Below, in pieces: positions 14,826 through 30,382 of a DNA stretch of 64,000 nucleotides. A program made the translations under genes and the position numbers. The stretch covers positions 83,779 to 147,778 of the forward strand of contig CAJTAK010000001.1 in the NCBI GenBank assembly GCA_910574255.1. Reading direction: 5' to 3'. The DNA comes from Clostridia bacterium. Its GTDB lineage: Bacteria > Bacillota > Clostridia > Lachnospirales > Lachnospiraceae. Positions within the stretch are counted from its first letter, which is position 1; the number at the start of each line of letters is the position of its first letter. The notes below the pieces were generated by a model, which was not told where the DNA came from, did no database searches, and saw only the letters and a list, made by a program, of their open reading frames with translations.

Positions 14826-15341
14826 ATGCAGATGAGCAGTGAATATATCAGTATAGCAGCCTCCAGTGTTGTCCGGCTCTGCTGTGACAGATTTGAGAGC
14901 GGGGACTGGAGCGGCAGATTTTATACAAGGTATCAGGAGAAGCCGGTAAGCTTTCGGAATACGGGGGAGCTGCTGGAGCGATTGGACGGATTTTATAACT
15001 GGCTGGGGTATCCCCAGGCATCCATGGAAAACCGCAGTTTTCGGAAGAAACCCTCCGAAAGGAGAGTTCTCCAGGAGACGGCTTCCCCACAGGAAGCCAG
15101 AATAAAGCAAAAAGGAGAACGAAGCATAGTGGTAAATGAAGAAGCGATGAACAAACATCAGGGTGAAAAGGCAACTTTCGTGGTACGTATTCAATATCGT
15201 CAGAATGCAAGCTGGCAGGGCCAGGTGACCTGGGCAGAGAAGAATAAGACCGTTCCTTTCCGCAGTGCCCTTGAATTGCTGAAGCTGATAGACAGTACAC
15301 AAGAAGCACCGGAAGAGAGTTGGGATAGGGGTGACGAATAG
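14826..15341 (+). CDS. Hypothetical protein (171 aa)
   Basis: ORF only. Long antisense ORFs overlap it, but operon context with the downstream gene (a 2-nt gap) favours the + strand. Confidence 0.4.
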   Translation: MQMSSEYISIAASSVVRLCCDRFESGDWSGRFYTRYQEKPVSFRNTGELLERLDGFYNWLGYPQASMENRSFRKKPSERRVLQETASPQEARIKQKGERSIVVNEEAMNKHQGEKATFVVRIQYRQNASWQGQVTWAEKNKTVPFRSALELLKLIDSTQEAPEESWDRGDE

Positions 15342-15343
15342 CT

Positions 15344-15859
15344 ATGACAGGAAAAGATCTGAGAAAGCTGGGACGCTCCCAGCTGTTGGAGCTTTTGGTG
15401 GCTCAGGCGAAAGAGATGGAAAGCCTGAAAGAGCGTCTGGCGGAAGCGGAAGCACAGATGGAGAAGCGTCAGATCGCCATTGATGAAGCCGGTTCCATAG
15501 CAGAAGCTTCTCTGGCCTTAAGCGGGATTTTTGAGGCGGCCGAGGAGGCTGTGTCCCAGTATATGGAGAACATCAAGGACCTGAGCGACAGGCAGCAGAA
15601 AGTCTATGTGCAGAGAGAACAGGAAAACAGAAAAAAAGCAGATGAAATTTTGAAAAAGGCTCAAAGAGGAGCCGACCTGCTTCTGAACAGTGCCCGGGAG
15701 GAATGCCGGAGACTGGAGGAGGACACCCGTAAGCAGTGCCGGAGACTGGAAGAGGACACTCGTAAGCGGTGCGAGAATATGGTAAGTTCTGCAAAAAAAA
15801 AGGAAGCAACCAGTGATGTGATAAGCTTGCCGCTGCGGCAGGGAGGGTTTCGTTCGTAA
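15344..15859 (+). CDS. Coiled-coil protein with tandem CRRLEEDTRK repeat
   Basis: Highly charged helical sequence with an internal 11-aa tandem duplication (ECRRLEEDTRKQCRRLEEDTRKRC). Confidence 0.5.
   Translation: MTGKDLRKLGRSQLLELLVAQAKEMESLKERLAEAEAQMEKRQIAIDEAGSIAEASLALSGIFEAAEEAVSQYMENIKDLSDRQQKVYVQREQENRKKADEILKKAQRGADLLLNSAREECRRLEEDTRKQCRRLEEDTRKRCENMVSSAKKKEATSDVISLPLRQGGFRS
15704..15769 (+). repeat. 33-bp direct tandem repeat (2 copies) inside the coiled-coil gene
   Basis: tgccggagactggaggaggacacccgtaagcag and tgccggagactggaagaggacactcgtaagcgg. Confidence 0.8.
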
Positions 15860-15874
15860 GCTTCCGAAGATGCA

Positions 15875-16471
15875 GTGGGGATGATTATGAAAAAAAATAG
15901 TGCAGTCGAGGTGCCGGAGCTCTCCCAGTTGGAGAAAGAGCTGAATAGAGTAAAGTATAAGAAGCGTTACAAGAGCGTGCTGACAAGCACGATCAGTACA
16001 CTGATTGTAGTGGCGGCCATAGCCGTTCTGATTGCAACGCTGCTGATGCCGGTGCTGCAGATATATGGAACAAGTATGAGCCCTACGTTATATGACGGCG
16101 ATATCATCGCCACCATAAAAACCACAGAATTTGAACAGGGAGATGTGGTGGCGTTTTATTATAACAATAAGATTCTTGTGAAACGTGTAATAGCCATGTC
16201 CGGCGAATGGGTGGATATGGATGAGGATGGAAACGTATATGTGAATGATGTGCTGCTGGATGAACCCTATCTGGTGGAACGGGCCGTAGGCGAGTGTGAC
16301 ATTAAGCTTCCCTATCAGGTTCCGGAGAATCGCATCTTCGTCATGGGCGATCACAGAAGCGTTTCCGTGGACAGCCGGAGTACAACCGTAGGCTGTGTGG
16401 CTGAAGAGCAGTTGGTAGGAAGATTGTTATTCCGGGTGTGGCCCCTGAAAGATATAGGGCCGGTGGGATAA
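15875..16471 (+). CDS. lepB: Signal peptidase I (LepB/S26A type)
   Basis: An N-terminal TM segment, then the catalytic Ser box IYGTSMSPTL, GDHRSVSVDSR and the C-terminal GRLLFRVWP. Confidence 0.85.
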   Translation: MGMIMKKNSAVEVPELSQLEKELNRVKYKKRYKSVLTSTISTLIVVAAIAVLIATLLMPVLQIYGTSMSPTLYDGDIIATIKTTEFEQGDVVAFYYNNKILVKRVIAMSGEWVDMDEDGNVYVNDVLLDEPYLVERAVGECDIKLPYQVPENRIFVMGDHRSVSVDSRSTTVGCVAEEQLVGRLLFRVWPLKDIGPVG

Positions 16472-16502
16472 GGATTGTTGGTATCAAAAAGGAGGATTTC
16501 TG

Positions 16503-19500
16503 ATGGAGTCTTCGATTCTGAAGAAAGCGGGAAAGTTCCTGCGTGAACAAGGGAAAAATAATCGGTGGAGAAAGATCCTGACAGTACTGGGTGCGATCGT
16601 GGTGTTTGTGACAGCATATATACTGTTGATGCCTGCGGTTGCCCTAGAACATAAGAGTGTATGCGGACTGGAGGAACATACCCATACAGAAGAGTGTTAC
16701 GGCCAGGCAGCAGTCTGCGGTAAAGTGGGAGCCGGGGATGAGAGCGAAGAACCGGTAACCCTTGAATTTGTCTGCACATTTCCGGAGGAACTGCATGTTC
16801 ATACCAGAGAATGTTATGACGGAGAAGACAATCTGATCTGTGGTTATGCGGATTATGCGGTCCATGAGCATACGCAAGGCTGTTATGAGGATGGCAGGCT
16901 GGTATGTCCCCTTGAAGAGATCGAGGAACACGAGCATACGGAAAGCTGTTACCGGGTCAATGACAGCGGATATATCTGCGGCCAGGAAGAGGCGGAAGCC
17001 CATACTCACGCAGATGCCTGCTATACAGAGCATCGGGAGCTTACCTGTGAGGAAGAAGAAAGGGAGGGCCATACCCATACAGATGACTGTTACACAGAAG
17101 AATGGGTGACCGTCTGCGGCCTGGAGGATGATCCCGAACATGTCCATGACGAATATTCCTGCTATGAAGTCAGCAGGACACTTACCTGCCAGGAAGAGGA
17201 AAGGGAGGGACACCAGCATGGAGACTCCTGCTACCATGTGGAAAGTGAACTGACCTGCGGCAAAGAAGAGAACTTAAACGGCCATAAGCATACGGAAAGC
17301 TGCCGTGGAGTGGTGAAAGAACTGGTTTGCGGCAAGGATGAGGTCATCCTGCATGAGCATACGGCAGAAGACGGCTGTTATGAGGCAGTCATGGATAATG
17401 ACGGAAACCAGATGCAGGATGAGAACGGCGAGCTCCTTTGGAGACTGGTGTGCGATAAGTTAGAGGTGCTGGAGCACGTACACGACAACGGGTGCTATCA
17501 GGAGCATGCACATACGGAGGAATGCTTTGCGGAAGATTTGATCTGCGGCAAGGAAGAGCATGTACATACGGAGGAATGCTTTGAGGGAACGGTTTACTGC
17601 GGTCTGGAGACGCATACCCATACAGAGGAATGCTATGTAGTAAATGAAGCAGGGGAAAAGGTTCTGAACTGCGGCCTGGAGGAGCATGAACACAGCTTTG
17701 CCTGCTATATCGGACCGGAGGTTTCAGAGGAAGACAGAGAGCGGATTCTCTATGTGGATCAGTTGATTGATGAACTTCCCTCATATGAAGAGATTGGCAT
17801 GGAGCTGGCGGCCTATGAGGAAGCGGGGGATGATGAGGGATACGAGGAGTATTATCTTGATACTGCGTTCTGGGCAGAGATTAGCTATCGTTATTATGAA
17901 GATTTGGATGAATTACAGAAGTATGTGGTCAATGGACCAAAGCTTTTAGAAATGAGTTCATTGTGGGAAGCTTCAACCATGGCACTGGACAATACAGCCA
18001 GTGAATGGAAAGTGACATCTGTCAATCAGATGACAGCTAATAGCAATGATAATAAGTGTGCCTTATTTCATGGAGATAATAAATCAATAAGGGATATAAG
18101 CACGTCAACGTTTCTATATTGGAGCGGATGCGTAGTCGGCTGGCAGAATGAACGCTATGAAGTTATTAAGCTGTTGAAGAATGGTGAGAGCAAAGCCAAT
18201 GAGAAGATACCAGAGGGAGGATGTATACTTTTCTTCTATGGGGACGAGGTGAAAGCTTATAAAGTGGGGGACATTGTAGAATTTGCATTAACAAAACCCT
18301 TTAACGAATTGCCTCAAGGAGCCGTAAGAGGAGGATATGGCACGGTATTCATAGGCGATACTCTAATAGCCCCCAAAGAACCCAAGGATAATCAGGTGAC
18401 AACTGTTTCGGACAGGGCGAGCACAGCCGGGCTGATTAACATCAACCTCTACGATTATGGAAGCAATATCAATGATCTTTATAAAAGCGATCACCGGTAT
18501 CCGGGATTTCAGGATGACGGCGGAACGAAAACGATCGATTTAAATAGTGGCAGTCTATGGGGAGCGAAAGGTTCTTACAATTTTGGCGGAAATATTGTTG
18601 CTGATTTGAATACCGGGTTTAGTCTTATCAATCAGGGCGGGCTGATCAATGCCACAGTGGGCGGTGCAAATACCCCCCTTCATGGAGTGGATGAAAATCA
18701 CCCAAGTCCGATGAATCCCAATCTGGGAGAGGATGGCTATCCTGAACTGAAAGAGGGCGGGATATCCCTGGGCTACTTATTCAGTAATAGTGCTTATGCT
18801 ACACGGAAGAACCGTGACGGGCTGGATGGACTGTTCCGTTATGACGAGACTACAGGGGAATACAGCTTTGACAGCCGCAGCAATTTTGCGGAGTTTGATG
18901 CGGCCAGCAATCAGTTTATTGTATATGATGCATTGCTGTCGCCTAATTACATGATGTATCCCTTTGGAAACTTCCTGCCTTTCAGCAAGATTAATACAGA
19001 AACCACCCAGGCCAGTGAGATTAATCGGGATTACTTCCGAATCATTGCGGCGACTGCGTCAAAAAAAGCAAAAGAGACAACCGATGGGAATCTGAAGACG
19101 GCTTACGAAACCCTGAGCAGAAATCTGGAAACATTTGTGGTGCAGATGGACGAAAAATGCGGTTCCAAAGATTGGGGCGGTATAGAAGCAGTCAGTGCCT
19201 ACTTTGCCACATCCGGTATTCCCCGGACCTTTACGAAAGAGGAACTGGCGAAGATATACTCCGTTGACTATGACGAGGCAAAGAATTTCTTCTTTGGCAT
19301 GAGCATGGAGATGGATTTTTCACAGCCGGTAGAGGGCCTGACCGGTCTGACGAATGATATTCCCATGGAATTTAATTTTGCCGGTGATGATGATGTGTGG
19401 ATCTATATAGATGAGATGCTGTACCTGAATCTGTCCGGTATTCATCGTCATGTGGGTGGCAAGATTGATTTTGTAAATGGAAGAATTTACTATTATGATT

Positions 19501-21812
19501 TGACCGTAGAGGCAGGAGATATAACAACAAGTCCCGATCAGACAGATACTTTCGAGCAGGTTATCAGGAGGAGCATGAAAGCGGCCGGAAAGACGGAATC
19601 GGAGATTGTGGCGGCTCTGGATGCAACCCTGAAAAAGGAAAATGGAGTTTATACCACATTTAAGGATAACTCAGCTCATAATTTCAAGTTTTATTATATG
19701 GAGCGTGGTGCCGGTTCCGGTGTGTGCAAGATAAATTTCAACTTCCCATTGCTGGAGAAGAACGCCCTCGCTCTGGGTAAGTCTCTGAGTGTTGACAACG
19801 GGGAAGTGGAAGATCTGTTGGGCAATCCGGACTTCCTGTTCCAGGTATTGGCAGCAAACAGCAATAATCAGAAGCCGGGTGAAAATGAACCGGAAGAACT
19901 CTTCATCAAAAAGGGCACGGCGTACAACGTTTATCGTCCCCGCTGCGGAATGGACACTTCAGAGGAACACCGACACAATGGGGACTGTTATGTGCAGTGC
20001 AAAATGGCGGCATCCGATGAACATCGGCACAGCGGAAAGTGCTATGGAGATAATCCGGCAAGAACGGGTATCACAGGGGAAGGCGGCATTATTACCCTGA
20101 AAAAGGATGAATGTGCAGTGTTCCCGGAACTTTCGGTAATAAGCGGCGGATATTACATTCGGGAACTTTTTGACAGCAGTTCCATTGATCAGTATGCGGA
20201 TGTGCAGGGAGGAGGCAGTTCCACCACTGACCGTAATGATATTCATGTAGGAGATAAGACTTTCGTAGGAAAAGAGACGGAAATTTACCATATGCTGAAC
20301 GGCAGCACGTTCTTTGCTTTTGATAATAAAGTGAAAACTACAAAGCTGGGCAGACTGAAGATTACTAAGGAATTGGTAATAGGAGAGGTGGATGCAGAAA
20401 GTTCGGAAGAGACATTCCGCATAGAAGTGCAGTTAAGCGGCACGAAGCTTCCGGTAGGTACATCCTACACGGTAACAGGTGCCGACGGAACAGAAGAGAC
20501 AAGAACCGTAGAAGAGGAGGGTATTATTCTCTTAAAGGGCGGTGAGACGGCACTGATTGAGAAGATTCTGGCAGGTACTGAGTATACCATTCAGGAGGAT
20601 CCGGCATCCACAGAGGGGTATCAGGTAGATTATACGCCGCCCACTATGGGAACCAAGGTGGCAGGGGATGAAGCCCATTACGGAAAGCCCTATGTGAAAG
20701 GAATTGTCAGCATCTATGATGAGGATGAAACCAAAATTTCTACCACAATAACGAATACAACCAAAGGCACGGGACTGGCGATACCGGTTCATAAGGTGCT
20801 CAGTAATCCTGATGGTAACAGCCATGCATACAGATTCCAACTGGTAGAGTTGGACGGCATACGGGGTAATGCAGTAGAGGACGGAAGAAAGGGAGAGGTT
20901 TCCCTTGTGTTTGAAAAGGGCACGGCTGATAGGGCTTTAGAACAGGAAAAGAGATTTGCTCCGATTCTGTATCTGACCAAGAATCTGAAAGACGGAGAGA
21001 CGGCAACGTATTATTACCAGATCACTGAGCTTGCAGAGGAGACTGAGACTGAAAAAGATCCGACGGTACGATATGACGAGACAGCCTATACGGTGGAAGT
21101 TCGGGTTACCAGAAAGAATGAGACCGTGACTGTGGATGAGGTTCTCATTCATAAAGAGGGGATGGAACCGACGAAGGTTCCCCTTACTCCGGAAGAAAAC
21201 GGAATTGTCACATTCGCAGGCGATAAGAGTCCGCTGACATTTAAGAATACACTGCTCCATGATCTGACAGTGCGGAAGCTGGCATCCGGCGGAAACAGCA
21301 GCGAAGCCACATTCAAGTTCGACATAGAACTGACGGGAAGTAATAAAACGGTAATCGTAGACGGTACGTACCCCTATGAGATTGAAAGGGTTAATGACAA
21401 CCTGGAATCCGAGATACAGACAGGAGAGGTTGCATTCCAAAGTGGAAAGGCATCTATAGAGCTTCGTTCAAAAGATACCCTGACCATCAAGGGTCTGCCC
21501 TACGGAGTAAGCTGGAAAGTAGTGGAGACTACCATTGACGGATATTATGTGGGCCATATCACGGGAGAAGATCCGGTACTGGCAGTTGATGACAGGAAGC
21601 AGGATGAAAATGAGGGGGCCGAAGCCAGCGGTGAACTGACAGAGACCACAGACAGCGTAACGTTCATTAACCGAACCACCTATGAACTTCCGGAATCCGG
21701 AGGGCCGGGTACAAACTTATATACAATGGCAGGCATCAGCTTGTTGCTGATGGCGGGCCTGATGTATAGAAAAAAAATCAGGGAAAGGAGGGCGGGTTCC
21801 TCCAGGAACTGA
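16503..21812 (+). CDS. Giant LPXTG-anchored surface adhesin (1769 aa): Cys/His tandem-repeat region, PA14/fibro-slime-like domain and Cna-B/pilin-isopeptide-like domains; probable pilus tip protein
   Basis: RBS AAAGGAGG. An N-terminal TM/signal segment. About 15 repeats of C-x4-H-x-H-x3-C-Y. The motif GDDDVWIYIDEMLYLNLSGIHRHVGG (fibro-slime/PA14-like). Repeated beta-sandwich-like stretches. A C-terminal sorting signal LPESGG plus a hydrophobic segment plus RKKIRERR. Confidence 0.85.
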   Translation: MESSILKKAGKFLREQGKNNRWRKILTVLGAIVVFVTAYILLMPAVALEHKSVCGLEEHTHTEECYGQAAVCGKVGAGDESEEPVTLEFVCTFPEELHVHTRECYDGEDNLICGYADYAVHEHTQGCYEDGRLVCPLEEIEEHEHTESCYRVNDSGYICGQEEAEAHTHADACYTEHRELTCEEEEREGHTHTDDCYTEEWVTVCGLEDDPEHVHDEYSCYEVSRTLTCQEEEREGHQHGDSCYHVESELTCGKEENLNGHKHTESCRGVVKELVCGKDEVILHEHTAEDGCYEAVMDNDGNQMQDENGELLWRLVCDKLEVLEHVHDNGCYQEHAHTEECFAEDLICGKEEHVHTEECFEGTVYCGLETHTHTEECYVVNEAGEKVLNCGLEEHEHSFACYIGPEVSEEDRERILYVDQLIDELPSYEEIGMELAAYEEAGDDEGYEEYYLDTAFWAEISYRYYEDLDELQKYVVNGPKLLEMSSLWEASTMALDNTASEWKVTSVNQMTANSNDNKCALFHGDNKSIRDISTSTFLYWSGCVVGWQNERYEVIKLLKNGESKANEKIPEGGCILFFYGDEVKAYKVGDIVEFALTKPFNELPQGAVRGGYGTVFIGDTLIAPKEPKDNQVTTVSDRASTAGLININLYDYGSNINDLYKSDHRYPGFQDDGGTKTIDLNSGSLWGAKGSYNFGGNIVADLNTGFSLINQGGLINATVGGANTPLHGVDENHPSPMNPNLGEDGYPELKEGGISLGYLFSNSAYATRKNRDGLDGLFRYDETTGEYSFDSRSNFAEFDAASNQFIVYDALLSPNYMMYPFGNFLPFSKINTETTQASEINRDYFRIIAATASKKAKETTDGNLKTAYETLSRNLETFVVQMDEKCGSKDWGGIEAVSAYFATSGIPRTFTKEELAKIYSVDYDEAKNFFFGMSMEMDFSQPVEGLTGLTNDIPMEFNFAGDDDVWIYIDEMLYLNLSGIHRHVGGKIDFVNGRIYYYDLTVEAGDITTSPDQTDTFEQVIRRSMKAAGKTESEIVAALDATLKKENGVYTTFKDNSAHNFKFYYMERGAGSGVCKINFNFPLLEKNALALGKSLSVDNGEVEDLLGNPDFLFQVLAANSNNQKPGENEPEELFIKKGTAYNVYRPRCGMDTSEEHRHNGDCYVQCKMAASDEHRHSGKCYGDNPARTGITGEGGIITLKKDECAVFPELSVISGGYYIRELFDSSSIDQYADVQGGGSSTTDRNDIHVGDKTFVGKETEIYHMLNGSTFFAFDNKVKTTKLGRLKITKELVIGEVDAESSEETFRIEVQLSGTKLPVGTSYTVTGADGTEETRTVEEEGIILLKGGETALIEKILAGTEYTIQEDPASTEGYQVDYTPPTMGTKVAGDEAHYGKPYVKGIVSIYDEDETKISTTITNTTKGTGLAIPVHKVLSNPDGNSHAYRFQLVELDGIRGNAVEDGRKGEVSLVFEKGTADRALEQEKRFAPILYLTKNLKDGETATYYYQITELAEETETEKDPTVRYDETAYTVEVRVTRKNETVTVDEVLIHKEGMEPTKVPLTPEENGIVTFAGDKSPLTFKNTLLHDLTVRKLASGGNSSEATFKFDIELTGSNKTVIVDGTYPYEIERVNDNLESEIQTGEVAFQSGKASIELRSKDTLTIKGLPYGVSWKVVETTIDGYYVGHITGEDPVLAVDDRKQDENEGAEASGELTETTDSVTFINRTTYELPESGGPGTNLYTMAGISLLLMAGLMYRKKIRERRAGSSRN
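16656..17724 (+). repeat. Tandem array (about 15 units) of the Cys/His motif C-x4-H-x-H-x3-C-Y, encoded by imperfect 60-90-bp DNA repeats
   Basis: Units such as CGLEEHTHTEECY, CTFPEELHVHTRECY, CEEEEREGHTHTDDCY, CGKEEHVHTEECF and CGLETHTHTEECY. Two more units lie near 19940-20060 (CGMDTSEEHRHNGDCY, ASDEHRHSGKCY). Confidence 0.85.
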
Positions 21813-21880
21813 ATATGCGGCCCCTGGCCGTTGAAACTCATTGTTACAAAGTAGATATAAAGGGAAAAGGAGAATAAGTT

Positions 21881-23395
21881 ATGAAACGAGTGAAAAAGTT
21901 GTTGAGCCTTGTTCTGGCTATGATGCTGGTACTGGCGATGGGAAGCACGGTTATGGCTTCAGGTCCGAATGAAGAGGAGCCTGTTCCCACAAATGGAAGT
22001 ATTAAGATTGAGAATGCGATTCCGGGACAGAGCTACAGCATTTATCGGGTTTTTGATTTAAGCTATTCAGAAGAAAATAAGGCATATTCCTATACTGTAA
22101 ACAACGACTGGCTTGGTTTTGTTACAGGTGAGGGTGCAGCTTATGTAACAGTAGAGACAATCGGAACAAACAATTATGTAACCTGGAAAGCAGATAAGAA
22201 CACAGACAAAGATGCTGCAGATTTTGCAAAGCTTGCATTAGCATATGCAAAAGGTAATATGATATCTGCTGTTGGTACAGAAACGGCAGATGGAGAAGGC
22301 GAGACAACTACAGTCGAGTTTACAGGTCTGGGGCTTGGGTATTATTTGGTTGACTCTAGTACAGGTGCGTTATGTTCATTGAATACAGCAACGCCAGATG
22401 CAACAATTCAGGAAAAGAATGAAAAGACTACAGTTGAGAAAGAGGTTGAGGAACCTACGGCTTCTGTAGGAGATGAACTTCATTACACAGTAAAGATTAA
22501 CGTTAAGAGCGGTTCCGAAAAGTATATACTGCATGACAAAATGTCAGAAGGATTAACTTTTAATGCTGACTCTCTCAAGGTTACTCTGCTTGATCCTAAT
22601 GTGACAGATTTAACTGCGGGGGCGCCGGTAGATGCTGATAAGTATACATTATTAACCGAGACAGACGATGATGATACATTTGATGTTGTATTCAATGAAG
22701 CTTACTGTGAAACTTTAGCCCCCAACAGCACTCTTGTTATAACCTACACAGCTGAAATCAACGAGGGTGCGCTAATCGAAGATAAAGTAAATAATACTGT
22801 AAGACTTGATTTTGGTGAGAACAACCGTACGGAAGATAAGACCGTAGAAACGAAGCTTTTTGATTTGGGTATCCAAAAAGTTGATGGCAGAGATAATAAA
22901 GGATTGGCAGGTGCTGTCTTTACACTTTCAAAAGAACTGTCTCTGGCAGATGGAAGTGATACAGCAGAAAAAGTTGGAGTAACTTTTGCGTATAATGATG
23001 AGAGTAAATGTTACGCAGCTACCGGAACAGGTGCGGCAAGCGAAATTAATGTTGAATCGGACGGTTCTCTTAAATTAAAAGGGCTGGGTGCCGGAACTTA
23101 TTATTTACATGAGGTAAAGGCACCAGATGGATATAATGCTTTAAAAGAAGACATAAAAATCGTAATTAATGAGAATGGAAATGTTACTGTAGTATCTAAA
23201 AAGCTGGACGAAAATGGTGTTGAGATGGATGAAGTAGAGACGGTTACAACAGTTACCGTTCAGAATATGACCGGTGCAGAGCTTCCTTCCACCGGTGGTA
23301 TCGGTACTACTATCTTCTACGTACTGGGCGGTATCCTGGTAGTTGGAGCTGGTATCATGTTAGTGGTAAAGAAACGCATGAGCAGTGAGAAATAA
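21881..23395 (+). CDS. LPXTG-anchored major pilin / fimbrial subunit (SpaA-like isopeptide-forming)
   Basis: Signal peptide MKRVKKLLSLVLAMMLVLAMG. Thr-rich beta-sandwich sequence. A C-terminal LPSTGG plus TM plus KKRMSSEK. Immediately followed by a class C sortase. Confidence 0.8.
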   Translation: MKRVKKLLSLVLAMMLVLAMGSTVMASGPNEEEPVPTNGSIKIENAIPGQSYSIYRVFDLSYSEENKAYSYTVNNDWLGFVTGEGAAYVTVETIGTNNYVTWKADKNTDKDAADFAKLALAYAKGNMISAVGTETADGEGETTTVEFTGLGLGYYLVDSSTGALCSLNTATPDATIQEKNEKTTVEKEVEEPTASVGDELHYTVKINVKSGSEKYILHDKMSEGLTFNADSLKVTLLDPNVTDLTAGAPVDADKYTLLTETDDDDTFDVVFNEAYCETLAPNSTLVITYTAEINEGALIEDKVNNTVRLDFGENNRTEDKTVETKLFDLGIQKVDGRDNKGLAGAVFTLSKELSLADGSDTAEKVGVTFAYNDESKCYAATGTGAASEINVESDGSLKLKGLGAGTYYLHEVKAPDGYNALKEDIKIVINENGNVTVVSKKLDENGVEMDEVETVTTVTVQNMTGAELPSTGGIGTTIFYVLGGILVVGAGIMLVVKKRMSSEK

Positions 23396-23521
23396 GACTG
23401 TAAAAAATTTGAACAAAAAAGATTTGTCTGTTGTAGGTCATGTTCACAGTCAAAGACGGTGAACCATGGCAGCCGGAGAGGAATCTGCCTCTCCGGTATA
23501 CAACAGCAAGGAGAATCCTGC

Positions 23522-24337
23522 ATGAAGAAACACTTATCAAACATTATTTTAATAGTTATCCTGCTTGCAGGCTTGTCCTTGCTGCTGTACCCTACAGTCA
23601 GTGACTATTGGAACAAGTTTCACCAATCCCAGGCAATTGCCAGCTATGCGGAGGCCGTAGCGGATTTGGATGATGAGACCTATGAACAGTTGTGGAGTGA
23701 GGCTGTTGAGTACAATCAGTCTCTACGATCCAGGGCCAACCGATATCACCCCACAGAGGAAGAACATGCGGCATATGAAGCTTTGCTCAATGTTTCCGGT
23801 AATGGTATCATGGGTTACATTGAGATAGAGAGTATCAACTGCTATCTTCCCATTTATCATGGTGTGGAAGAGTCCGTGCTTCAGATTGCAGTGGGGCATA
23901 TAGAGGGAACCTCTCTGCCGGTAGGCGGACCGGGAAGTCACTGCGTATTGTCCGGTCATAGAGGTCTGCCATCCGCAAAGCTGTTTACGGATCTGGACCA
24001 GATGCGGGAGGGAGATGTTTTTGTCCTCCGGGTACTGGATGAGACTCTGACTTATGAAGTGGATCAGATCCGCATTGTTCTGCCGGAAGAGGTGAATGAT
24101 TTGGAACTGGTGGACGGGATGGATTACTGTACGCTGGTGACCTGTACGCCTTATGGCATCAACAGTCACCGTATGCTGGTGCGGGGACACCGGATTGACA
24201 ATCTGGCGGATGCGTCTTCCATTCGTGTAACGGCAGATGCCATGCAGTTAAGGCCGGTGCTTATCACGCCGATTTTAATGGTACCCATATTATTATTGTT
24301 GGTTATCTGGTTTCGAATTCGACGCCGAAGAAGATAG
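23522..24337 (+). CDS. srtC: Class C (pilus-polymerising) sortase
   Basis: An N-terminal TM segment, catalytic His in HIEGTSLPVG, the TLVTCTPYG active-site Cys motif, Arg in VRGHRI, and a C-terminal TM plus RIRRRRR lid/anchor. ATG at 23522 behind AAGGAGA. Confidence 0.85.
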   Translation: MKKHLSNIILIVILLAGLSLLLYPTVSDYWNKFHQSQAIASYAEAVADLDDETYEQLWSEAVEYNQSLRSRANRYHPTEEEHAAYEALLNVSGNGIMGYIEIESINCYLPIYHGVEESVLQIAVGHIEGTSLPVGGPGSHCVLSGHRGLPSAKLFTDLDQMREGDVFVLRVLDETLTYEVDQIRIVLPEEVNDLELVDGMDYCTLVTCTPYGINSHRMLVRGHRIDNLADASSIRVTADAMQLRPVLITPILMVPILLLLVIWFRIRRRRR

Positions 24338-24347
24338 AAAGAGAGGA

Positions 24348-25646
24348 ATGAGTATGAGAGGGAAATACAGAAAAAAAGTCTGGCTGTGTGCCGCACTGGC
24401 GGCTGTATTGTGTCTCACACTGATGCTGCCTCATAAGAACAGCCTAGCCAGAGTACTTCTTGATACAGAAAGAGAGAAAAACACTCTGAAAGTAAATAAA
24501 GAAAACTTAACCAGTGAAGATTTGCTGAAAGAAGATGCAAGTCTGGCCAACGCAGAGGTGCAGGTATATCTGTATAAACTGGCGACTGTGGATGAGTACG
24601 GACAATATACTCTGGTTGATGGATTCAAAGATCTGGCGGGTCAGCTTCCGGAGGGGGTGCTTGACATCGAGGCACTGAACAGGACAGTGTTTGAGGCAAC
24701 CTCCGACCAGTGGGAGACAACGGCACACTGGGTATCAGAGCTTTTAGGACTTCCCGCATTTACCAGTGAGAAGAATGAAAATAATGAAGATAGTGATGAT
24801 AAGGAAACTCCTCCGGAGGGAGAGCAGAAGTCAGACGGAAAGAAGTTTTACATCCCAGAGAATGAAACTTTAATCGGTCTGCCATGTTATGATAAAACCA
24901 TACTGGCAGGAGACGGGATAGACTATGATGTAGACCAGGGGCTCTATCTGGTCTGGGCAAAGCCTATTGTGACCGAAAAATATATGTACACATTTCTTCC
25001 TTACCTGGTATCCGTTCCGGACAATGCATATGGAAGAGAGGATGATCTCAATAAGGATTCCGATGATTGGAATTATAATGTCGTGGTAGATCTGAAGCCG
25101 GAACGTCAGGAACGCTATCTGGATCTGGAGATAGATAAGACCTTATTGAATTACCAGCCGACTTCCGGCAAGGCCATGTTTATATTTGAAATCAGGGCTG
25201 AGAAAGGGACGACGGAAGAGGGCGACCCAATCGTAGTGTTTCATGATGTGGTGGGTCTGGAATTCAACGGAGATGGCAACAAGAGTGTGCGGGTAAGGAA
25301 TATCCCGGCAGGCTCCAAAGTGACAATCACAGAGATCCGTACCGGTACAACTTACCGACTGGTTTCCAAAAAAGTAGTTCCGGCAGATGGGGTTACTCTG
25401 GGAACAACGGAGACGGCAGACGGTTTTGTGATAGACAGCCTGTCAGGCAAAGCGGACTGGATATCTTCCCAGGGAACCGAAGAGGGAGAGAATGAACTTG
25501 TAGCTAATGTATCATTTACCAATGATTACAGTGGAGAAGACGGGCCGAAGACAGATGGCATTGTAAATCAATTTACCCGGATTGACGGAGAGTGGAAGGG
25601 TGCACAGATTATAACAAATCAGGGAGGTGGAGCAGCCAATGAGTAA
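24348..25646 (+). CDS. Secreted protein of unknown function (432 aa) within the pilus/TasA locus
   Basis: An N-terminal signal peptide and no C-terminal sorting motif. Confidence 0.5.
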   Translation: MSMRGKYRKKVWLCAALAAVLCLTLMLPHKNSLARVLLDTEREKNTLKVNKENLTSEDLLKEDASLANAEVQVYLYKLATVDEYGQYTLVDGFKDLAGQLPEGVLDIEALNRTVFEATSDQWETTAHWVSELLGLPAFTSEKNENNEDSDDKETPPEGEQKSDGKKFYIPENETLIGLPCYDKTILAGDGIDYDVDQGLYLVWAKPIVTEKYMYTFLPYLVSVPDNAYGREDDLNKDSDDWNYNVVVDLKPERQERYLDLEIDKTLLNYQPTSGKAMFIFEIRAEKGTTEEGDPIVVFHDVVGLEFNGDGNKSVRVRNIPAGSKVTITEIRTGTTYRLVSKKVVPADGVTLGTTETADGFVIDSLSGKADWISSQGTEEGENELVANVSFTNDYSGEDGPKTDGIVNQFTRIDGEWKGAQIITNQGGGAANE

Positions 25647-26187
25647 AAAGCGATTATACCGCAGACGGACGGCTCTTCTGGCAGCCTTGGCCCTTGTGCT
25701 TCTGTTTGGTTCTACATTAAAGGATTCTCTGGCATACTTTACCACTTACACCAGGGTAAACGGCCACTGGCCGGTAACTTTCGGACCGGATACGGAGATT
25801 GAAGAAACGATCGAAGATCTGATTAAGAAGATCCAGATTGAAAATACAGGAGAGACAGACTGCTTTGTCCGGATAAGGGCGTATTTTGGAGAGGACATGG
25901 TTGTTCTTAAAAAGGTAGAGGAGGCGGATGCAAAGGATGGGGCTGCCCACTGGACACAGGACGGTGATTGGTGGTATTACAGTCAGGTCTTAAAGCCAGG
26001 GAAAAAGACATGTGAACTTGCTATGACCTTTGCACCACACCAAAATCTGCATCTCAATCCGGTTATTGATACATTCCATGTGGTGATTGTTCAGGAAACT
26101 GCACCGGTGCTTTACCGTACCAATCCGGACGGCACACGTACACCCTATGCGGAGTGGCCGGAACAGAATGAGGAGGCCGGATTATGA
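25639..26187 (+). CDS. TasA/camelysin (peptidase M73)-like secreted fibre protein with SipW-cognate-type signal peptide
   Basis: MSKKRLYRRRTALLAALALVLLFGSTLKDSLAYFTTYT resembles TasA/CalY signals (…GGGTFAFFSD). About 180 aa, as for camelysin. SipW is encoded 2.6 kb downstream. Confidence 0.55.
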   Translation: MSKKRLYRRRTALLAALALVLLFGSTLKDSLAYFTTYTRVNGHWPVTFGPDTEIEETIEDLIKKIQIENTGETDCFVRIRAYFGEDMVVLKKVEEADAKDGAAHWTQDGDWWYYSQVLKPGKKTCELAMTFAPHQNLHLNPVIDTFHVVIVQETAPVLYRTNPDGTRTPYAEWPEQNEEAGL

Positions 26188-27014
26188 AGAAGAAAAAGAA
26201 AAACAGATCCAGGGGTGCCTACACCACAGGAATTTTATTTGCGGTGGCAGTTCTTCTGCTCCTTGGAAGCGTAGCCGGCAGCAGTCAGGCGGCACTGACA
26301 TATTACAGCGAGAATTATTCGGCACAGCTTCAGACTTTCGATATTGGTGTCACCCTGGTGGAAAACGGCCGTGATGTGAGTTGGCGTAATTATACCCAGC
26401 GGGATGACAAATGGTATGAGGATGGCGTTGGTCTTCTGACTGATATGCTGTATGCCGGACCGAACGGAGAGCAGGAAGCACTTCAGTTGGAGACGTATTA
26501 TCCGGAGGTACTCTGTGTCAAAAACAGCGGAAATATCGACGAATATGTGAGAGTGTTGATTTACCGTTACTGGGTGGATGAAGAGGAGAGAGGCGATGGG
26601 ATCCCAGTTCCCATAGAGGATAGAAAGAAGAGAACGGATATTTCTCCGGGCTTTATTAAGCTGTCTCCCTGGAATGGCACGGAGACAGGGCAAAGCGGGA
26701 CCCTTTCTTACAATGGATGGGTGCTTGATGAGGCGGCCAGTACAAATGAGCGTATCGTTCTCTATTATACGGGGGTAGTAGGAACAGGAAAGACAACTCC
26801 CCCATTTATGGATGCACTGGCTATCAGTAAAGATGTAGAGAGTGAGTTCAGAATCTCGGATTCTGATGGAAAATATACTTACCAGAATGAAGAGTTTGTA
26901 TTAGAGGTTGAGGCGGATGCCGTGCAGACCCACAATGGGGCAGATGCTATCAAGAGTGCCTGGGGTGTTGACGTAATCGTAGACGCATCCGGCAATCTGA
27001 GTCTGAGGAGGTAG
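26184..27014 (+). CDS. Second TasA/camelysin-like protein with SipW-cognate-type signal peptide
   Basis: MKKKKKNRSRGAYTTGILFAVAVLLLLGSVAGSSQAALTYYSENY. Start overlaps the upstream stop. Confidence 0.5.
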   Translation: MKKKKKNRSRGAYTTGILFAVAVLLLLGSVAGSSQAALTYYSENYSAQLQTFDIGVTLVENGRDVSWRNYTQRDDKWYEDGVGLLTDMLYAGPNGEQEALQLETYYPEVLCVKNSGNIDEYVRVLIYRYWVDEEERGDGIPVPIEDRKKRTDISPGFIKLSPWNGTETGQSGTLSYNGWVLDEAASTNERIVLYYTGVVGTGKTTPPFMDALAISKDVESEFRISDSDGKYTYQNEEFVLEVEADAVQTHNGADAIKSAWGVDVIVDASGNLSLRR

Positions 27015-27019
27015 GGAAA

Positions 27020-27793
27020 ATGAAGAAAAAGTTTTGCAGCCTGTTTCTTATCCTGCTTCTTGCGGCAGGAAGTGTTTTGACTGTACATGCGGAGGAACTT
27101 ATAGGCGGAAAGGGCTGGTATGTCCGGTTTACCGGGGATAAGATGGAAAGTAACTTTAATTCGTCTGATGTTACAGAAGCTATTTCAAAAATGGAGCCCG
27201 GAGACAGTGTTACCTTTCATATCAGCCTGGAAAATAATGACACGTCATCTACAGATTGGTATATGACCAATGAGGTGCTCCAAAGCCTGGAGGATAGCCA
27301 GAATGTAGCAGAGGGCAGTGCGTATACTTATATATTGACTTATAAGAACAGCAGCGGACAGGAGGAAATCCTCTACAACAGCGAAAATGTAGGCGGTGAG
27401 ACTGTTACCAGAGCAGGGGAAGGACTTCACGAGGCTACAGACAGCCTGAAGGATTACTTTTATCTGGATAAGCTGGCAAGGAAGGAAAAGGCATCCATTT
27501 CCCTAAAAGTAGCCCTGGATGGAGAAACTCATGGAAATACTTATCAGAATACCATTGCAAAGCTTCAGATGAATTTTGCAGTGGAGAAGCTTAGAGATAC
27601 AAACACAGCCACATCATCCAATGCCAGAAGCGTCCGGGAGGACAATGAGATTTATAAGGTGGGAAATGATGTGCGGACAGGCGATCAGACCCGCATACTG
27701 CTTTGGTCACTGCTGGCGTTGGTGAGCGGTATTGGATTTATGGGACTGGCGACTGCAAGCCGCAGGCGAAAAGGGGGAGAGGAACATGAGTAG
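27020..27793 (+). CDS. Secreted surface protein with non-canonical C-terminal sorting signal (VRTGD + TM + RRRKG)
   Basis: Signal peptide MKKKFCSLFLILLLAAGSVLTVHA. C-terminus …VGNDVRTGDQTRILLWSLLALVSGIGFMGLATASRRRKGGEEHE has the tripartite architecture of a cell-wall sorting signal. Confidence 0.55.
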   Translation: MKKKFCSLFLILLLAAGSVLTVHAEELIGGKGWYVRFTGDKMESNFNSSDVTEAISKMEPGDSVTFHISLENNDTSSTDWYMTNEVLQSLEDSQNVAEGSAYTYILTYKNSSGQEEILYNSENVGGETVTRAGEGLHEATDSLKDYFYLDKLARKEKASISLKVALDGETHGNTYQNTIAKLQMNFAVEKLRDTNTATSSNARSVREDNEIYKVGNDVRTGDQTRILLWSLLALVSGIGFMGLATASRRRKGGEEHE

Positions 27794-28838
27794 ATGTCGT
27801 AAAATCTGGTTTATTGTTCTGTCCTTATGCATGTTTTTTTCGGCGGCTCCTTTAGAAAGCAGCGCAGCACAAGGAGATTCCTATACCTATACTCTGACCT
27901 TTTATGCAGGCAATCAGGGGGAGTTCTCAGGTATTGGAGACTTGTCCGGCCTTTCTTCCGGATATATGATTACAAGCAGTCAGGACAGAATCACCATCAG
28001 CGGCTTAAGCTATCGGGATCGAGTAAGCTTTAATGCAGTATCCCTTATAAAGCTTCCGGAGGACAGTAAGTATTATGTAAAGGGAATCCGTCAGAGCGGC
28101 CGTGATAACAATACAGTAGATCAGGTGAGGAGCAATTCTATCCTTGTGGAAAGTGATCGGGATTATGTGGTAGCTTATGGCATCAAAGGAGATATGGTAG
28201 CTTACCATGTAAATTACAGGGATGAGGCAGGCAATACGCTGGCACCCAGCGAAACCTATTATGGCAATGTGGGAGATAAGCCTGTGATGGCATTTCTTTA
28301 CATTGAAGGCTATGAGCCTCAGGCATACAATCTGACCCGGACACTGGTAAGTGATGAGTCGAAAAATGAGTTCAACTTTGTGTATCGCAGGGCAGCAGCC
28401 GGAGCGAATACTGCAACCGTGACAGGAGGCGGCAATACCTCAACGGCTGTTCCTGGCAGCGTTACGGTAATTTCCGGCGAGGGCAATGCAAGCGGAGGAA
28501 ATGGCACAGGAACAGGCGGCGGGGCAAATGCCAATGCCAATGCAGACACGGACGGAGAGGCAGCAGAGGGTGAAAACGCTGAAAATGCAGAAGCTGAAAC
28601 AACGACCATTCAGGATGACCCAGTGCCTCAGGCGCCGGGAGAGCTGGTGGATCTGGATGACGAGGAAGTGCCTCTGGCAAATCTAAAGGATCTCATTATC
28701 AATTCAGAGGGACGCTTTGTCTATGGTGCATCTATTTTGATAGGCGTATCTGCTGCTGCGGCATTGATTGGAATGGGAATTATGTTCTGGAAAAAGAAAC
28801 ATGTGAATGAGGAAATAGACAATTGGGAGATCAATTAA
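27786..28838 (+). CDS. Surface protein with low-complexity Gly/Asn/Ala/Glu tract and C-terminal TM anchor
   Basis: Signal peptide MSRCRKIWFIVLSLCMFFSAAPLESSAAQG. The tract GGNGTGTGGGANANANADTDGEAAEGENAENAEAE. A C-terminal TM segment ILIGVSAAAALIGMGIMFWKKKH. Confidence 0.5.
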   Translation: MSRCRKIWFIVLSLCMFFSAAPLESSAAQGDSYTYTLTFYAGNQGEFSGIGDLSGLSSGYMITSSQDRITISGLSYRDRVSFNAVSLIKLPEDSKYYVKGIRQSGRDNNTVDQVRSNSILVESDRDYVVAYGIKGDMVAYHVNYRDEAGNTLAPSETYYGNVGDKPVMAFLYIEGYEPQAYNLTRTLVSDESKNEFNFVYRRAAAGANTATVTGGGNTSTAVPGSVTVISGEGNASGGNGTGTGGGANANANADTDGEAAEGENAENAEAETTTIQDDPVPQAPGELVDLDDEEVPLANLKDLIINSEGRFVYGASILIGVSAAAALIGMGIMFWKKKHVNEEIDNWEIN

Positions 28839-29359
28839 AGAAAAAGGAAAAGCATTTTGAGCTGTCTTCTATATGCAGCGGTTTTGGATTGATTTTACTC
28901 CTGTTGGTTGTAGCTCTTTGCCTGCCGCTGACGGTGCCCCGTTTGCTGGGGTATGAGCTTTACGCTATTGTCAGCGGCAGTATGGAGCCGGCGATTTCCG
29001 TCGGCAGTGTAGTTTATGCCAAGCGGATTAATCCGCAGGAGATAGAAGCCGGCGATGTGATCGTATTTTATGGCGGTCATGATTCTTCCGCAGTCATTAC
29101 ACATCGGGCTGTGGAGAATCATAAGGAAGAGCAGGAACTTCTCACCAAAGGCGATGCAAATGCGGGAAACGATATGCTTCCCATTGCATACAATAATGTT
29201 ATCGGCAGGGTAGGACTGTCCGTTCCGATTCTGGGTATTCTGCTGCCATTGGTGACAGAGACTTCAGGAAAGCTTTACCTGGTGGGGATCCTTGGAGCAG
29301 GGGTTCTTTTCCGCATTCTGGGAAGCCGTCTGCGAGATGGAAGTGAGTCAGAAGGATAA
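28823..29359 (+). CDS. sipW: SipW-type signal peptidase (S26B, ER/archaeal type)
   Basis: An N-terminal TM segment, the catalytic motif AIVSGSMEP characteristic of SipW/Sec11-type peptidases, and a C-terminal TM segment. TTG start; no in-frame ATG. Confidence 0.8.
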   Translation: MGDQLKKKEKHFELSSICSGFGLILLLLVVALCLPLTVPRLLGYELYAIVSGSMEPAISVGSVVYAKRINPQEIEAGDVIVFYGGHDSSAVITHRAVENHKEEQELLTKGDANAGNDMLPIAYNNVIGRVGLSVPILGILLPLVTETSGKLYLVGILGAGVLFRILGSRLRDGSESEG

Positions 29360-29427: not shown

Positions 29428-29446
29428 TAATAAGTACGTTTTAGTT

Positions 29447-29517
29447 AGGGGATTGGTCAAATGGCATGACAGGGGTCTCCAAAACCCTTAGTGGGAGTTC
29501 GATTCTCTCATCCCCTG
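29447..29517 (+). tRNA. trnW: tRNA-Trp (anticodon CCA)
   Basis: Manually folded cloverleaf. Acceptor AGGGGAT/ATCCCCT, D-stem GTCA/TGAC, anticodon stem GGGGT/ACCCT with loop CTCCAAA (anticodon CCA), T-stem GGGAG/CTCTC with loop TTCGATT, discriminator G. No CCA is encoded. Confidence 0.8.
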
Positions 29518-29524
29518 TAGAAAA

Positions 29525-29571
29525 AGCACAGGAAACCTGTAAGACAACAGGTTCCTGTGCTTTTTCTTTTT
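29525..29571 (+). terminator. Rho-independent terminator after tRNA-Trp
   Basis: A 14-bp stem with a 1-nt bulge: GCACAGGAAACCTGT (29525-29539) pairs with ACAGGTTCCTGTGC (29546-29559) around loop AAGACA, followed by TTTTTCTTTTTT (29560-29571). Confidence 0.8.
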
Positions 29572-29701
29572 TGGAAAATAAAAAGAATGACAGGACTTTT
29601 GAGATGTATTATAATAGGAATGAAACCTGTAGAACTCAAAATAATAACCCTTTTTGCAATGCCAATAGGGTTAGGGAACTGAAATTAGGAGGATACATAA
29701 A

Positions 29702-30382
29702 ATGGCTAATATTTTAAAAAGATTTGGCGATATCATGTCAGCAAATATCAATGCACTTCTGGATAAGGCAGAAGATCCGGAAAAGATGATTGACAAATAC
29801 ATTCGGGATATAGAAGAAGACATGCGGGGCGTAAAGGCAGAGACTGCGGCAGTGATGGCGGCGGAGACCAAGGCAAAGCGGGAACTTGCCGAATGTCAGG
29901 ATGAGATTGCCAAGATGCAGAAGTATGCAGAGAAAGCACTGATGGCAGGCAATGAGAGTGATGCCCGCAGATTCCTGGAGAAAAAGGGCGAGTTGACCAA
30001 CAAACAGGCAGGCTTGCAGCAGGCTTACGATCTGGCGGCAGCAAATGCAGCCAAGATGAAGGAAATGCACGACAAGCTGGCCAAGGATCTGGAAGGACTT
30101 CAGGCAAAACGTGATGCGATCAAGGCTAAAGCAGCCGTAGCCAAAACCCAGGAAAAGCTCAACAAGATGGGCACAAATGTATCTGGCGCAGGGGAAGCTA
30201 TGGCAGCCTTTGACCGCATGGAGGCAAAGGTGGATCGGATGCTGGATGAGGCTAACGCTATGGCGGAATTGAATTCTGAGGCAGACAGCATTGACGCTTT
30301 GGCAGCAAAATATGACGGGGATGAGGATACTTCTTCTGTAGATGATGAGCTGGCAGCTCTAAAGGCGAAGATGGGACTGTAA
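29702..30382 (+). CDS. pspA: PspA/IM30 family protein (phage-shock protein A / LiaH-like)
   Basis: MANILKRFGDIMSANINALLDKAEDPEKMIDKYIRDIEEDM… a canonical PspA N-terminus, with a coiled-coil throughout. RBS AGGAGG. Confidence 0.9.
   Translation: MANILKRFGDIMSANINALLDKAEDPEKMIDKYIRDIEEDMRGVKAETAAVMAAETKAKRELAECQDEIAKMQKYAEKALMAGNESDARRFLEKKGELTNKQAGLQQAYDLAAANAAKMKEMHDKLAKDLEGLQAKRDAIKAKAAVAKTQEKLNKMGTNVSGAGEAMAAFDRMEAKVDRMLDEANAMAELNSEADSIDALAAKYDGDEDTSSVDDELAALKAKMGL

Follow-up and report, generated by a model that had tools for sequence, protein, structure and literature searches.

A gene cassette of the Lachnospiraceae that may join a sortase-assembled pilus to SipW-cognate, BsaA-like proteins in one surface fiber

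Genes of the cassette

We examined 64,000 nucleotides of DNA from a Clostridia bacterium of the Lachnospiraceae (GenBank assembly GCA_910574255.1, contig CAJTAK010000001.1, positions 83,779 to 147,778 of the forward strand). In this stretch, here called the window, ten genes at 15875-29359, numbered g01 to g10 in order, and two genes upstream of g01, called u1 and u2, appear to form a surface-fiber cassette. One half encodes the parts of a sortase-assembled pilus and the other includes two distant relatives of the matrix protein BsaA and a SipW-like signal peptidase. The reading that we prefer, to which we give a probability of about 0.5, is that 14826-29359 is one self-contained cassette, widespread among the Lachnospiraceae, and that its two halves are joined in one composite fiber.

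An earlier interpretation made from the DNA letters (the sequence-only reading) had described a single co-directional block here, and this description holds. All ten open reading frames are present where it had placed them, all on the + strand and closely packed, with intergenic gaps of 5-126 bp and overlaps of 4-16 bp. The overlapping pairs are g05/g06, g06/g07 (4 bp), g08/g09, and g09/g10, and the gaps are widest behind g02 (68 bp) and g03 (up to 126 bp). We took refined starts for g04 (23522), g05 (24354), g06 (25639), and g09 (27786) from the gene calls of near-identical contigs. A strong terminator lies at 14716-14747, just 5' of u1, and no convincing terminator was found between 14747 and 29359. 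The promoter scan was uninformative, with 23 sites against 24.3 expected, and a search for riboswitches and regulatory RNAs with Rfam matched only a tRNA-Trp. This tRNA gene (CCA; 29446-29518, +; found by ARAGORN, and at 60.3 bits by Rfam RF00005) forms the 3' boundary of the cassette, and the transcription unit probably starts at 14826, so as to include u1 and u2, and ends there. An 83-residue open reading frame at 29466-29717 that overlaps the tRNA gene is spurious.

For comparison with other genomes, we took the best 80 g07-centered loci (of 440 species) with 10-kb flanks and searched their open reading frames with the window proteins; labels such as L016 and L106 below denote related loci from other genomes or contigs. 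Between g05 and g09 there is essentially no above-threshold annotation from Pfam or NCBIfam profiles, so that much of what follows draws on alignments of families of relatives, motifs, and models of folds.

The first four genes had been called a type I signal peptidase, a giant adhesin, an LPSTGG pilin, and a class C sortase in the sequence-only reading, and profile searches confirmed each of these assignments. g01 (15875-16471, +; the start may be 15887) encodes a bacterial (LepB/P-type) signal peptidase I that scores 119.5 bits with TIGR02227, against a cutoff of 47, and matches PF10502 at 6.4e-34. Its catalytic boxes are intact (GTSMSPT, VKRVIA, and GDHRSVSVDSR), and the Ser (SM) box is kept in all full-length homologues. 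The gene lies directly 5' of the adhesin gene, a placement that recurs in 27 loci where this region is visible, and its product may be a working peptidase for g02, g03, g05, g08, and g09, a chaperone, or both.

g02 (16503-21812, +) encodes a 1,769-residue protein with matches to DUF7601 (5.4e-27), FctA (8.9e-7), and DUF5979. It runs from a signal anchor through 15 Cys/His-rich repeats, a fibro-slime-like segment, and Cna-B-type stalk domains to an LPESGG motif followed by a transmembrane segment and a basic tail, and it is predicted to be the tip adhesin. The repeats (residues 50-405, window positions ~16650-17720) are 15 copies of C-x(2-8)-E-x-H-x-H-x(2-4)-C-[YF] at a spacing of ~20-24 residues, with 30 Cys and 15 HxH in total; they have no Pfam match and may be a metal-binding array. 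Of 44 adhesins from related loci, 43 have an LPx[TAS]G ending. The 504-residue product of g03 (21881-23395, +) is a major pilin of the SpaH/EbpB type (NF033902, 120.6 bits against 95) with TIGR04226, SpaA, and GramPos_pilinBB matches and an LPSTGG motif; all 74 of the g03-like proteins have an LPxTG/AG/SG ending. g04 (23522-24337, +), which is 271 residues long on the near-identical contigs, encodes a class C sortase with a C-terminal transmembrane segment (NF033745, 275 bits against 160), and the catalytic His, Cys, and Arg are all present in the motifs LSGHRG, TLVTCTPYG, and LVRGHR. Judged by profiles and motifs, the cassette contains a complete sortase-pilus toolkit of peptidase, adhesin, shaft pilin, and sortase. 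It contains no gene for a basal pilin with its own LPXTG; g05 has a lysine without a sorting signal, and g08 has the reverse.

The next gene, g05 (24354-25646, +), had been noted as coding for a 432-residue secreted protein. The protein is present, and what had been missed is that it is a pilin-like protein of two domains that lacks a sorting signal. It has neither LPXTG nor a transmembrane segment. The AlphaFold2 model, built from an alignment of 13 database homologues, has two beta domains (mean predicted local distance difference test [pLDDT] score of 73), and its best Foldseek matches are sortase pilins, namely, C. perfringens CppA, S. pyogenes Spy0128, PitB, and GBS52 (E values of 5e-7 to 1e-3). 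DUF5979 was matched by 32 of 34 family members. In alignment columns of 72 members, both W241 and K250 of the pilin-motif-like sequence WxYDVxVxLK(250)PE are invariant (72/72), as are K264, E329, and N392, the isopeptide triad of the Cna-B domain (72/72 each). Columns were used since a strict regular expression for the lysine motif matched 47 of 77 proteins, which is an undercount. The N-terminal domain contains no further invariant Asn, Asp, or Glu, which leaves K250 without a partner for an internal isopeptide bond. The position of a sorting signal is taken by a conserved C-terminal tail, GxGVVN(407)HF(409)xYD..GWxW, in which N407 is invariant (72/72). Since it lacks a sorting signal, g05 would not be transferable to lipid II and so would not itself be wall anchored, and we propose that it is an adaptor.

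A variant of the locus bears on this proposal. In L016, L036, L055, and L081, both the sortase and the pilin are missing, and a single fusion protein of 1,558-1,953 residues is found instead. Its N terminus resembles g02, with the Cys/His repeats common to the fusion adhesins of L036, L055, and L081 (blastp E values of ~1e-7 to 1e-14), and its last ~165 residues correspond to residues 257-422 of g05, i.e., the Cna-B domain and the tail (2e-9 to 2e-13). The lysine motif of g05 lies outside the segment that is retained. The g08 sorting signal is retained in these sortase-less loci, and one genome, B90_2, has both the fusion and the standard type of locus.

g06 (25639-26187, +; 182-186 residues) and g07 (26184-27014, +; 276 residues) encode small secreted proteins that are candidates for a small and a major fiber subunit, respectively. 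The two families are homologous (hhalign probability of 97.6%). In the g06 family, A-Y-F-T is invariant directly after the hydrophobic core of the signal peptide, and K67 and E157 are invariant as well; its N-terminal segment has no Asn or Asp. In the g07 family, the signal peptide is followed by A-A-L-T-Y-[YF]-S, and the C-terminal motif is DAVQTHN..DAIKSAWG. The AlphaFold2 model of g07 (pLDDT of 78.5) is a beta-sandwich whose N-terminal residues 31-49 score below 50 and are disordered in the monomer. The donor strand of BsaA is likewise disordered in monomer models (PMC11580942). The g07 fold matched generic Ig or beta-sandwich domains only, including pilin and cohesin modules.

These two proteins had been described as TasA/CalY-like, and only part of that description stands. 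Neither matches PF12389 (Peptidase_M73) at an E value of ≤0.1, which is the very result named beforehand as speaking against the TasA label, and comparison with a single TasA sequence by hhalign was negative for both. What remains are the SipW-cognate N termini and matches below the cutoff to TIGR04090, the BsaA family of SipW-dependent biofilm matrix proteins: g06 itself matches at 4.3e-5 (23.4 bits) and g07 at 4.1e-7 (30 bits), and the model is matched by 30 of 34 relatives of g06 (best, 3.7e-11) and 39 of 40 relatives of g07 (best, 1.7e-9). As judged by these profiles, g06 and g07 are distant BsaA homologues and not members of TIGR04090. BsaA is a remote TasA homologue that polymerizes by donor-strand exchange (PMC11580942, PMC7395162), and this published kinship, together with the TIGR04090 matches, leads to the label that we regard as defensible from the sequences, namely, SipW-cognate, distant relatives of the BsaA family. 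Nothing found here supports the word amyloid, which had also been used. TIGR04088, the model for the SipW-cognate signal, gave no reported match at an E value of ≤0.1, and searches of PDB sequences with g06, g07, and the g07 profile returned nothing relevant. The g07 family is large, with 1,937 clusters at 90% identity, 1,521 representatives at 50%, and relatives in 440 GTDB species. None of the clusters listed has a Pfam domain. The exhaustive profile search speaks to the size of the family only, as its top 150 matches were all close relatives, with no bridge among them to bona fide BsaA or TasA proteins. A lock of Asn, Lys, and Glu inside g07 was considered and dropped because there is no invariant Lys in the family.

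g08 (27020-27793, +; 257 residues) and g09 (27786-28838, +; 350 residues) had been read as two C-terminally anchored surface proteins. Both do have hydrophobic C-terminal anchors, but that of g08 is a sortase signal and not just a membrane anchor. g08 has an ordinary Sec signal and a beta-rich domain and ends in VRTGD, a transmembrane segment, and RRRK, which makes it the proposed cell wall anchor. The family pattern is [VP][KQR]T[GS]D followed by a transmembrane segment and a basic tail; xxT[GS]D is present in 79 of the 80 loci, T220 and D222 are invariant, and there is no invariant Lys. Members match sortase models (NF053819 in 22 of 39, srtB_target in 8, and LPXTG_anchor in 4). This class of signal is distinct from the LPx[TAS]G of the adhesins and pilins. 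Motifs of the NVQTG/PPKTG type are substrates of the clostridial housekeeping SrtB, and the signal of g08 appears by its motif to be of this clostridial housekeeping or SrtB type. g08 is distantly related to g06 (hhalign probability of 76-88%) and, compared with g06 and g07, is alone in having a weak TasA-like signal: hhalign gave 85% against the TasA family over 80 columns, which include the signal peptide, and PF12389 was weakly matched by 2 of 39 members. g09 has a Sec signal, a MucBP-like domain (22.9 bits against a cutoff of 23, with 28 of 36 family members matching), a Gly-rich linker, a DLDDEEVPLA motif, and a C-terminal transmembrane segment. Its N-terminal domain is related to g08 (hhalign probability of 91.8%), and we propose from these features that it may be a membrane-tethered assembly or adhesion factor.

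The last gene, g10 (28823-29359, +), encodes an archaeal/endoplasmic reticulum (ER)-type signal peptidase I (TIGR02228, 96.5 bits against 51.85) with the catalytic Ser in SGSMEP, His in ITHRAV, and Asp in KGDAN. This confirms the earlier call of a SipW-type peptidase from its SGSMEP motif. With NF046067, the equivalog model of Bacillus SipW, it scores 81 against a cutoff of 190, so that it is better called SipW-like than a SipW orthologue. A dedicated peptidase of the SipW type and SipW-cognate N termini are encoded together here, in g10 and in g06 and g07.

Conservation across the Lachnospiraceae

That these genes belong together is supported by the recurrence of their order in other genera. 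Upstream genes were counted in the 69 of the 80 loci with at least 4 kb of sequence upstream of g07: a sortase is present in 65 of them (in two copies in 32) and a g03-like pilin in 63. The pilin and sortase are followed by g05, g06, g07, g08, and g09 in this order in nearly all loci, g10 is found in 66 of the 80, and u2-g01 and a large LPXTG adhesin come first wherever the sequence extends far enough. The u2-g01 pair recurs even where it has moved to between the sortase and g05 (L042, L070, and L082). Among the hosts are Blautia producta DSM 2950 (locus L080), Roseburia amylophila, Acetatifactor aquisgranensis, Agathobacter, Dorea, Muricomes, and Sellimonas, and the identity of g07 across loci is 41-60%. 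Flanking genes are not co-conserved, and the downstream genes for PspA, Band7, and PcrA are syntenic in contigs of the same species only. The shared order within differing flanks suggests that the cassette moves as a unit, and several genomes have two or more copies. The earlier suggestion of a coordinated adhesion module is strengthened by the order kept across genera and by the overlapping of the genes.

Six contigs with the cassette (L018, L027, L029, L031, L035, and L059) come from metagenome-assembled genomes labelled Muribaculaceae, Slackia, Odoribacter, Bacteroidaceae, Duodenibacillus, or Bifidobacteriaceae. These odd labels are likely to reflect misbinning and not true hosts.

A composite fiber and its alternatives

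The composite model is based on gene content, motifs, folds, synteny, and the fusion variant, and it would place the proteins in the order adhesin, pilin shaft, adaptor, BsaA-like subunits, and wall anchor. In this model, g01 and the general Sec pathway would export g02, g03, g05, g08, and g09, while the SipW-type peptidase g10 would cleave g06 and g07 just before AYFT and ALTYYS, respectively, and so expose N-terminal donor strands. The class C sortase would polymerize g02-(g03)n, and the shaft would be terminated on K250 of g05, a basal pilin that cannot be anchored to the wall itself. In the manner of TasA and BsaA, the C-terminal domain and tail of g05 would then dock by strand complementation on g06, which a g07 polymer would follow. 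The g07 chain would end on g08, which a housekeeping sortase would link to peptidoglycan, and g09, which is related to g08, tethered to the membrane, and equipped with a MucBP-like domain, is a candidate for a nucleator or platform. The type IV pilus-like cassette that is encoded next to these genes may help to drive the folded assembly across the wall, as has been described for the Bsa proteins of C. perfringens. Under the composite model, the fusion protein is the one-polypeptide equivalent of g02-(g03)n-g05, which would account for why sortase, pilin, and lysine motif vanish together.

The fully specified form of this chimera, in which the sortase shaft ends on the g05 lysine, the g05 tail is inserted into the SipW-matured donor-strand chain with a possible isopeptide bond between N407 and K67/E157, g08 is the anchor, and type IV pilus-like machinery possibly assists export, is tentative, and we consider it to have clearly less than an even chance of being right. 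The idea that N407 of g05, with K67 and E157 of g06, forms a covalent interprotein lock in the style of BsaA is speculative.

Several observations weigh against the composite fiber. Every TIGR04090 score of g06 and g07 is under the 60-bit cutoff; hhalign against a TasA/CalY profile built from 36 genuine PF12389 proteins gave probabilities of only 5.7% for g07 and 18.6% for g06; and no TasA was found among the fold matches listed for either protein, so that the fold comparison did not reveal a TasA-like fold. Since no Lys is invariant in the g07 family and the Asn of SENY varies, the isopeptide lock of the BsaA type is not conserved in it, and donor-strand polymerization of g06 and g07 is extrapolated from distant relatives. 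We had considered that g08 lacks an N-terminal donor segment, and this idea was dropped, as hhalign aligns the short mature N terminus of g08 with the AYFTTY region of g06. A two-component sortase pilus could be anchored through its own shaft pilin, so that g05 is not strictly needed as a base. Cotranscription is suggested by gene spacing alone. Finally, the loci compared are the 80 closest among 440 species, and more distant relatives may be arranged differently.

The main alternative is that the genes encode two separate fibers under common control, i.e., a g02/g03 pilus anchored by the LPSTGG of g03 through a housekeeping sortase, and a g06/g07 fiber with g05 at the tip and g08 as the anchor, which would be inherited together because they act jointly in adhesion or biofilm formation and not because they are physically joined. 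Each toolkit looks complete on its own. Pili without a dedicated basal pilin exist, as in BcpA/BcpB of B. cereus. The sortase-less loci show that neither pilin nor sortase is needed for the g05C-g06-g10 half to work, and the Bsa fibers of C. perfringens polymerize without a sortase (PMC7395162). However, two separate fibers leave unexplained why an LPXTG-less g05 should have an invariant lysine in a pilin motif (72/72), why the fusions lack exactly the lysine region while sortase and pilin are lost together, and why pilin and sortase sit directly 5' of g05 across genera (63 and 65 of 69 loci, respectively). We regard this arrangement as less likely than the composite fiber.

A second alternative is that g05 to g09 form no fiber at all and are instead a complex for pilus base formation or assembly, with Ig-like accessory proteins and with g08 and g09 as platforms at the wall and at the membrane, respectively. 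The role of the SipW-type peptidase would then be no more than to mature g06 and g07, and their likeness to BsaA would reflect distant ancestry without shared polymerization. This fits with the generic Ig/beta-sandwich matches of the g07 fold, with the lack of TasA profile matches, with TIGR04090 scores at half of the cutoff, and with the absence of a conserved isopeptide triad in g07. On the other hand, loci without sortase and pilin keep g06 to g10 together with the adhesin fusion, which points to a function independent of the sortase pilus; the TIGR04090 matches are consistent (39/40 and 30/34) and significant; and the conserved, disordered N-terminal segments after the SipW-type cleavage site look like donor strands (PMC11580942). 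A base complex is improbable on this balance. That the genes are unrelated transcription units lying side by side in this genome by chance is effectively refuted by synteny: the gaps after g02 and g03 could each hold an internal promoter, on which the promoter scan was uninformative, but the same order recurs across genera (sortase in 65 of 69 loci) between differing flanking genes, four pairs of genes overlap, a fusion variant exists, and protein identities of 41-60% argue against one recently transferred element.

Relation to known systems

The closest parallel that we know for the second half is in C. perfringens, where sipW-bsaA-bsaB-bsaC adjoins srtB (Obana 2020, PMC7395162; Kivimaki 2024/25, PMC11580942). 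In both systems, two paralogous secreted proteins with a remote likeness to TasA accompany a SipW-type peptidase, and a larger adhesin-like protein, a neighboring sortase, and a link to type IV pilus genes are also common to both. In C. perfringens, the secretion of BsaC and BsaA is reported to depend on type IV pilus genes (PMC11580942). An LPXTG-bearing BsaB-like protein in some C. perfringens strains (PMC11580942, PMC7395162) parallels g08. In a subset of the BsaA family, there is an intermolecular isopeptide bond between an Asn of the donor strand and an acceptor Lys, with a catalytic Glu (PMC11580942). The systems differ in that the scores of g06 and g07 remain below the TIGR04090 cutoff and this N-E-K triad is not kept in g07. 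Beyond what bsa encodes, the window has a LepB-type peptidase, an adhesin with LPXTG, a shaft pilin, a class C sortase, a pilin adaptor without LPXTG, and g09; where BsaC is a vWA protein, g05 is a pilin; and the C. perfringens sortase is divergent and dispensable for BsaA polymerization.

The cassette also resembles tapA-sipW-tasA of Bacillus and sipW-tasA-calY of B. cereus in encoding a dedicated ER-type signal peptidase alongside its substrates, in the N-terminal A-[YA]-F-[TN] motif at the cleavage site, which is similar to A/AFND of TasA, and in combining a major subunit and minor ones with an anchoring or accessory protein. It differs in that g06 and g07 do not match PF12389 and fall far short in the hhalign comparison. 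TasA-type systems of Bacillus are independent of sortase (PMC13082335).

For the first half, a signal peptidase in a pilus operon has precedent. SipA/LepA is encoded in the FCT-2/3/4 pilus operons of S. pyogenes, PI-2 of S. pneumoniae, and PI-2b of group B Streptococcus, where it is needed for pilus polymerization although its catalytic Ser/Lys have been lost (PMC7900414). As in those operons, a signal peptidase I homologue sits here beside a tip adhesin, a shaft pilin, and a pilus sortase, the structural matches of g05 include Spy0128 and PitB, which are shaft pilins of FCT/PI-2 systems, and g02 has an FctA domain. Unlike SipA/LepA, g01 and its homologues keep the catalytic Ser/Lys boxes, and unlike FCT/PI-2, the sortase is of class C, g03 is of the SpaH/EbpB type, and there is no LPXTG basal pilin such as FctB. 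Canonical three-component pili of the SpaA-SpaB-SpaC type, which include a basal pilin, share with the cassette a tip adhesin, a shaft pilin, a class C sortase, and a small pilin-like protein with a conserved lysine that could end polymerization. The difference is that the candidate terminator here, g05, has no sorting signal and has a conserved tail of ~35 residues in its place.

Both halves of the cassette are thus of known kinds, and the novelty lies in how they are paired, in g05 as a pilin adaptor that has no anchor, and in the fusion variant; we found no description of this gene cluster in Lachnospiraceae in the full-text literature. Lachnospiraceae such as Blautia, Roseburia, Agathobacter, and their relatives are dominant commensals of the human gut, and to our knowledge, little is known about how they adhere. 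The five central proteins of the cassette are annotated only as hypothetical and belong to no Pfam family. If the composite fiber is real, it would link the two main routes of fiber formation in Gram-positive bacteria, transpeptidation by sortase and donor-strand exchange, g05 would be a pilin whose sorting signal was replaced by a docking tail, and the recent claim that matrix proteins of the Bsa type are exported with the aid of type IV pilus machinery would gain independent support from genomes. The model supplies residues that can be tested (K250 and N407 of g05 and K67 and E157 of g06), and Blautia producta DSM 2950, Roseburia amylophila, and Acetatifactor aquisgranensis are cultured hosts.

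Neighboring genes

At the head of the cassette, u1 (14826-15341, +) encodes 171 residues of unassigned function, with no signal peptide and no Pfam or NCBIfam match, and u2 (15344-15859, +) encodes a cytoplasmic, DivIVA-like coiled-coil protein, also of 171 residues (NF050102 DivIVA_Wag31, 2.8e-7, below the cutoff). Homologues of u1 precede u2/g01 or follow a BTAD gene in many loci, and u1 usually adjoins the BTAD regulator at the head of the cluster. In the window, this BTAD/OmpR-type (SARP-like) regulator is encoded at 8650-9975 (+; BTAD, 1.3e-14; Trans_reg_C, 7e-8). The BTAD gene adjoins g clusters or type IV pilus-like cassettes in more than 20 loci, usually with u1, so that it is probably the regulator of the cluster, as far as can be judged from domains and placement, and likely forms a regulatory pair with u1.

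The cassette related to type IV pili and type II secretion systems lies at 9821-14735 (+). It encodes a transglutaminase-like protein, a GspF/PilC-like platform protein (T2SSF, 1.3e-46), four small, N-terminally hydrophobic, pseudopilin-like proteins (one with DUF4860), and a PilT-family ATPase (TIGR01420, 423 bits against 319). It adjoins the g cluster, on either side, in 10 of the 80 g07-centered loci (nine others plus the layout of the window itself), which is a lower bound, as in the window layout it falls beyond the 10-kb flank. It recurs beside the sortase/SipW cassette in L010, L032, L033, L052, L057, L062, L072, L083, L106, and L115. In L106 and L115, its gene T2 is directly 3' of g10, with an overlap of ~30 bp in L106. 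Metagenome loci were also scanned with the PilC-like gene (T3) at the center, the alignment of the DUF4860 protein being too divergent for use as a query, and most of these loci have no g genes. The linkage is recurrent and not obligatory, and a role of this cassette as an export helper is possible.

In some metagenome contigs, at 7986-8882 in L102 and 8006-8728 in L152, a divergent sortase-like gene lies in the same orientation directly 5' of the transglutaminase-like gene with which the type IV pilus-like cassette begins. L142, L143, and L147 have a very divergent, minimal trio resembling g07-g08-g09 (~6.2-8.8 kb in L142; 28-44 bits), which is divergently oriented beside the type IV pilus-like cassette, followed by BTAD, u1, and an adhesin; g05, g06, and g10 are not detectable there.

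Further downstream, G+C falls from ~0.47 to 0.29-0.41 in window positions 38000-64000. The genes of this region include GmrSD-like and AbiH genes and genes for a KAP-family NTPase, a DUF5688 protein, a sigma-70 region 4 protein, and a phage-type integrase (61001-62188). The region looks like a defense island or an integrative element that is unrelated to the fiber cassette.

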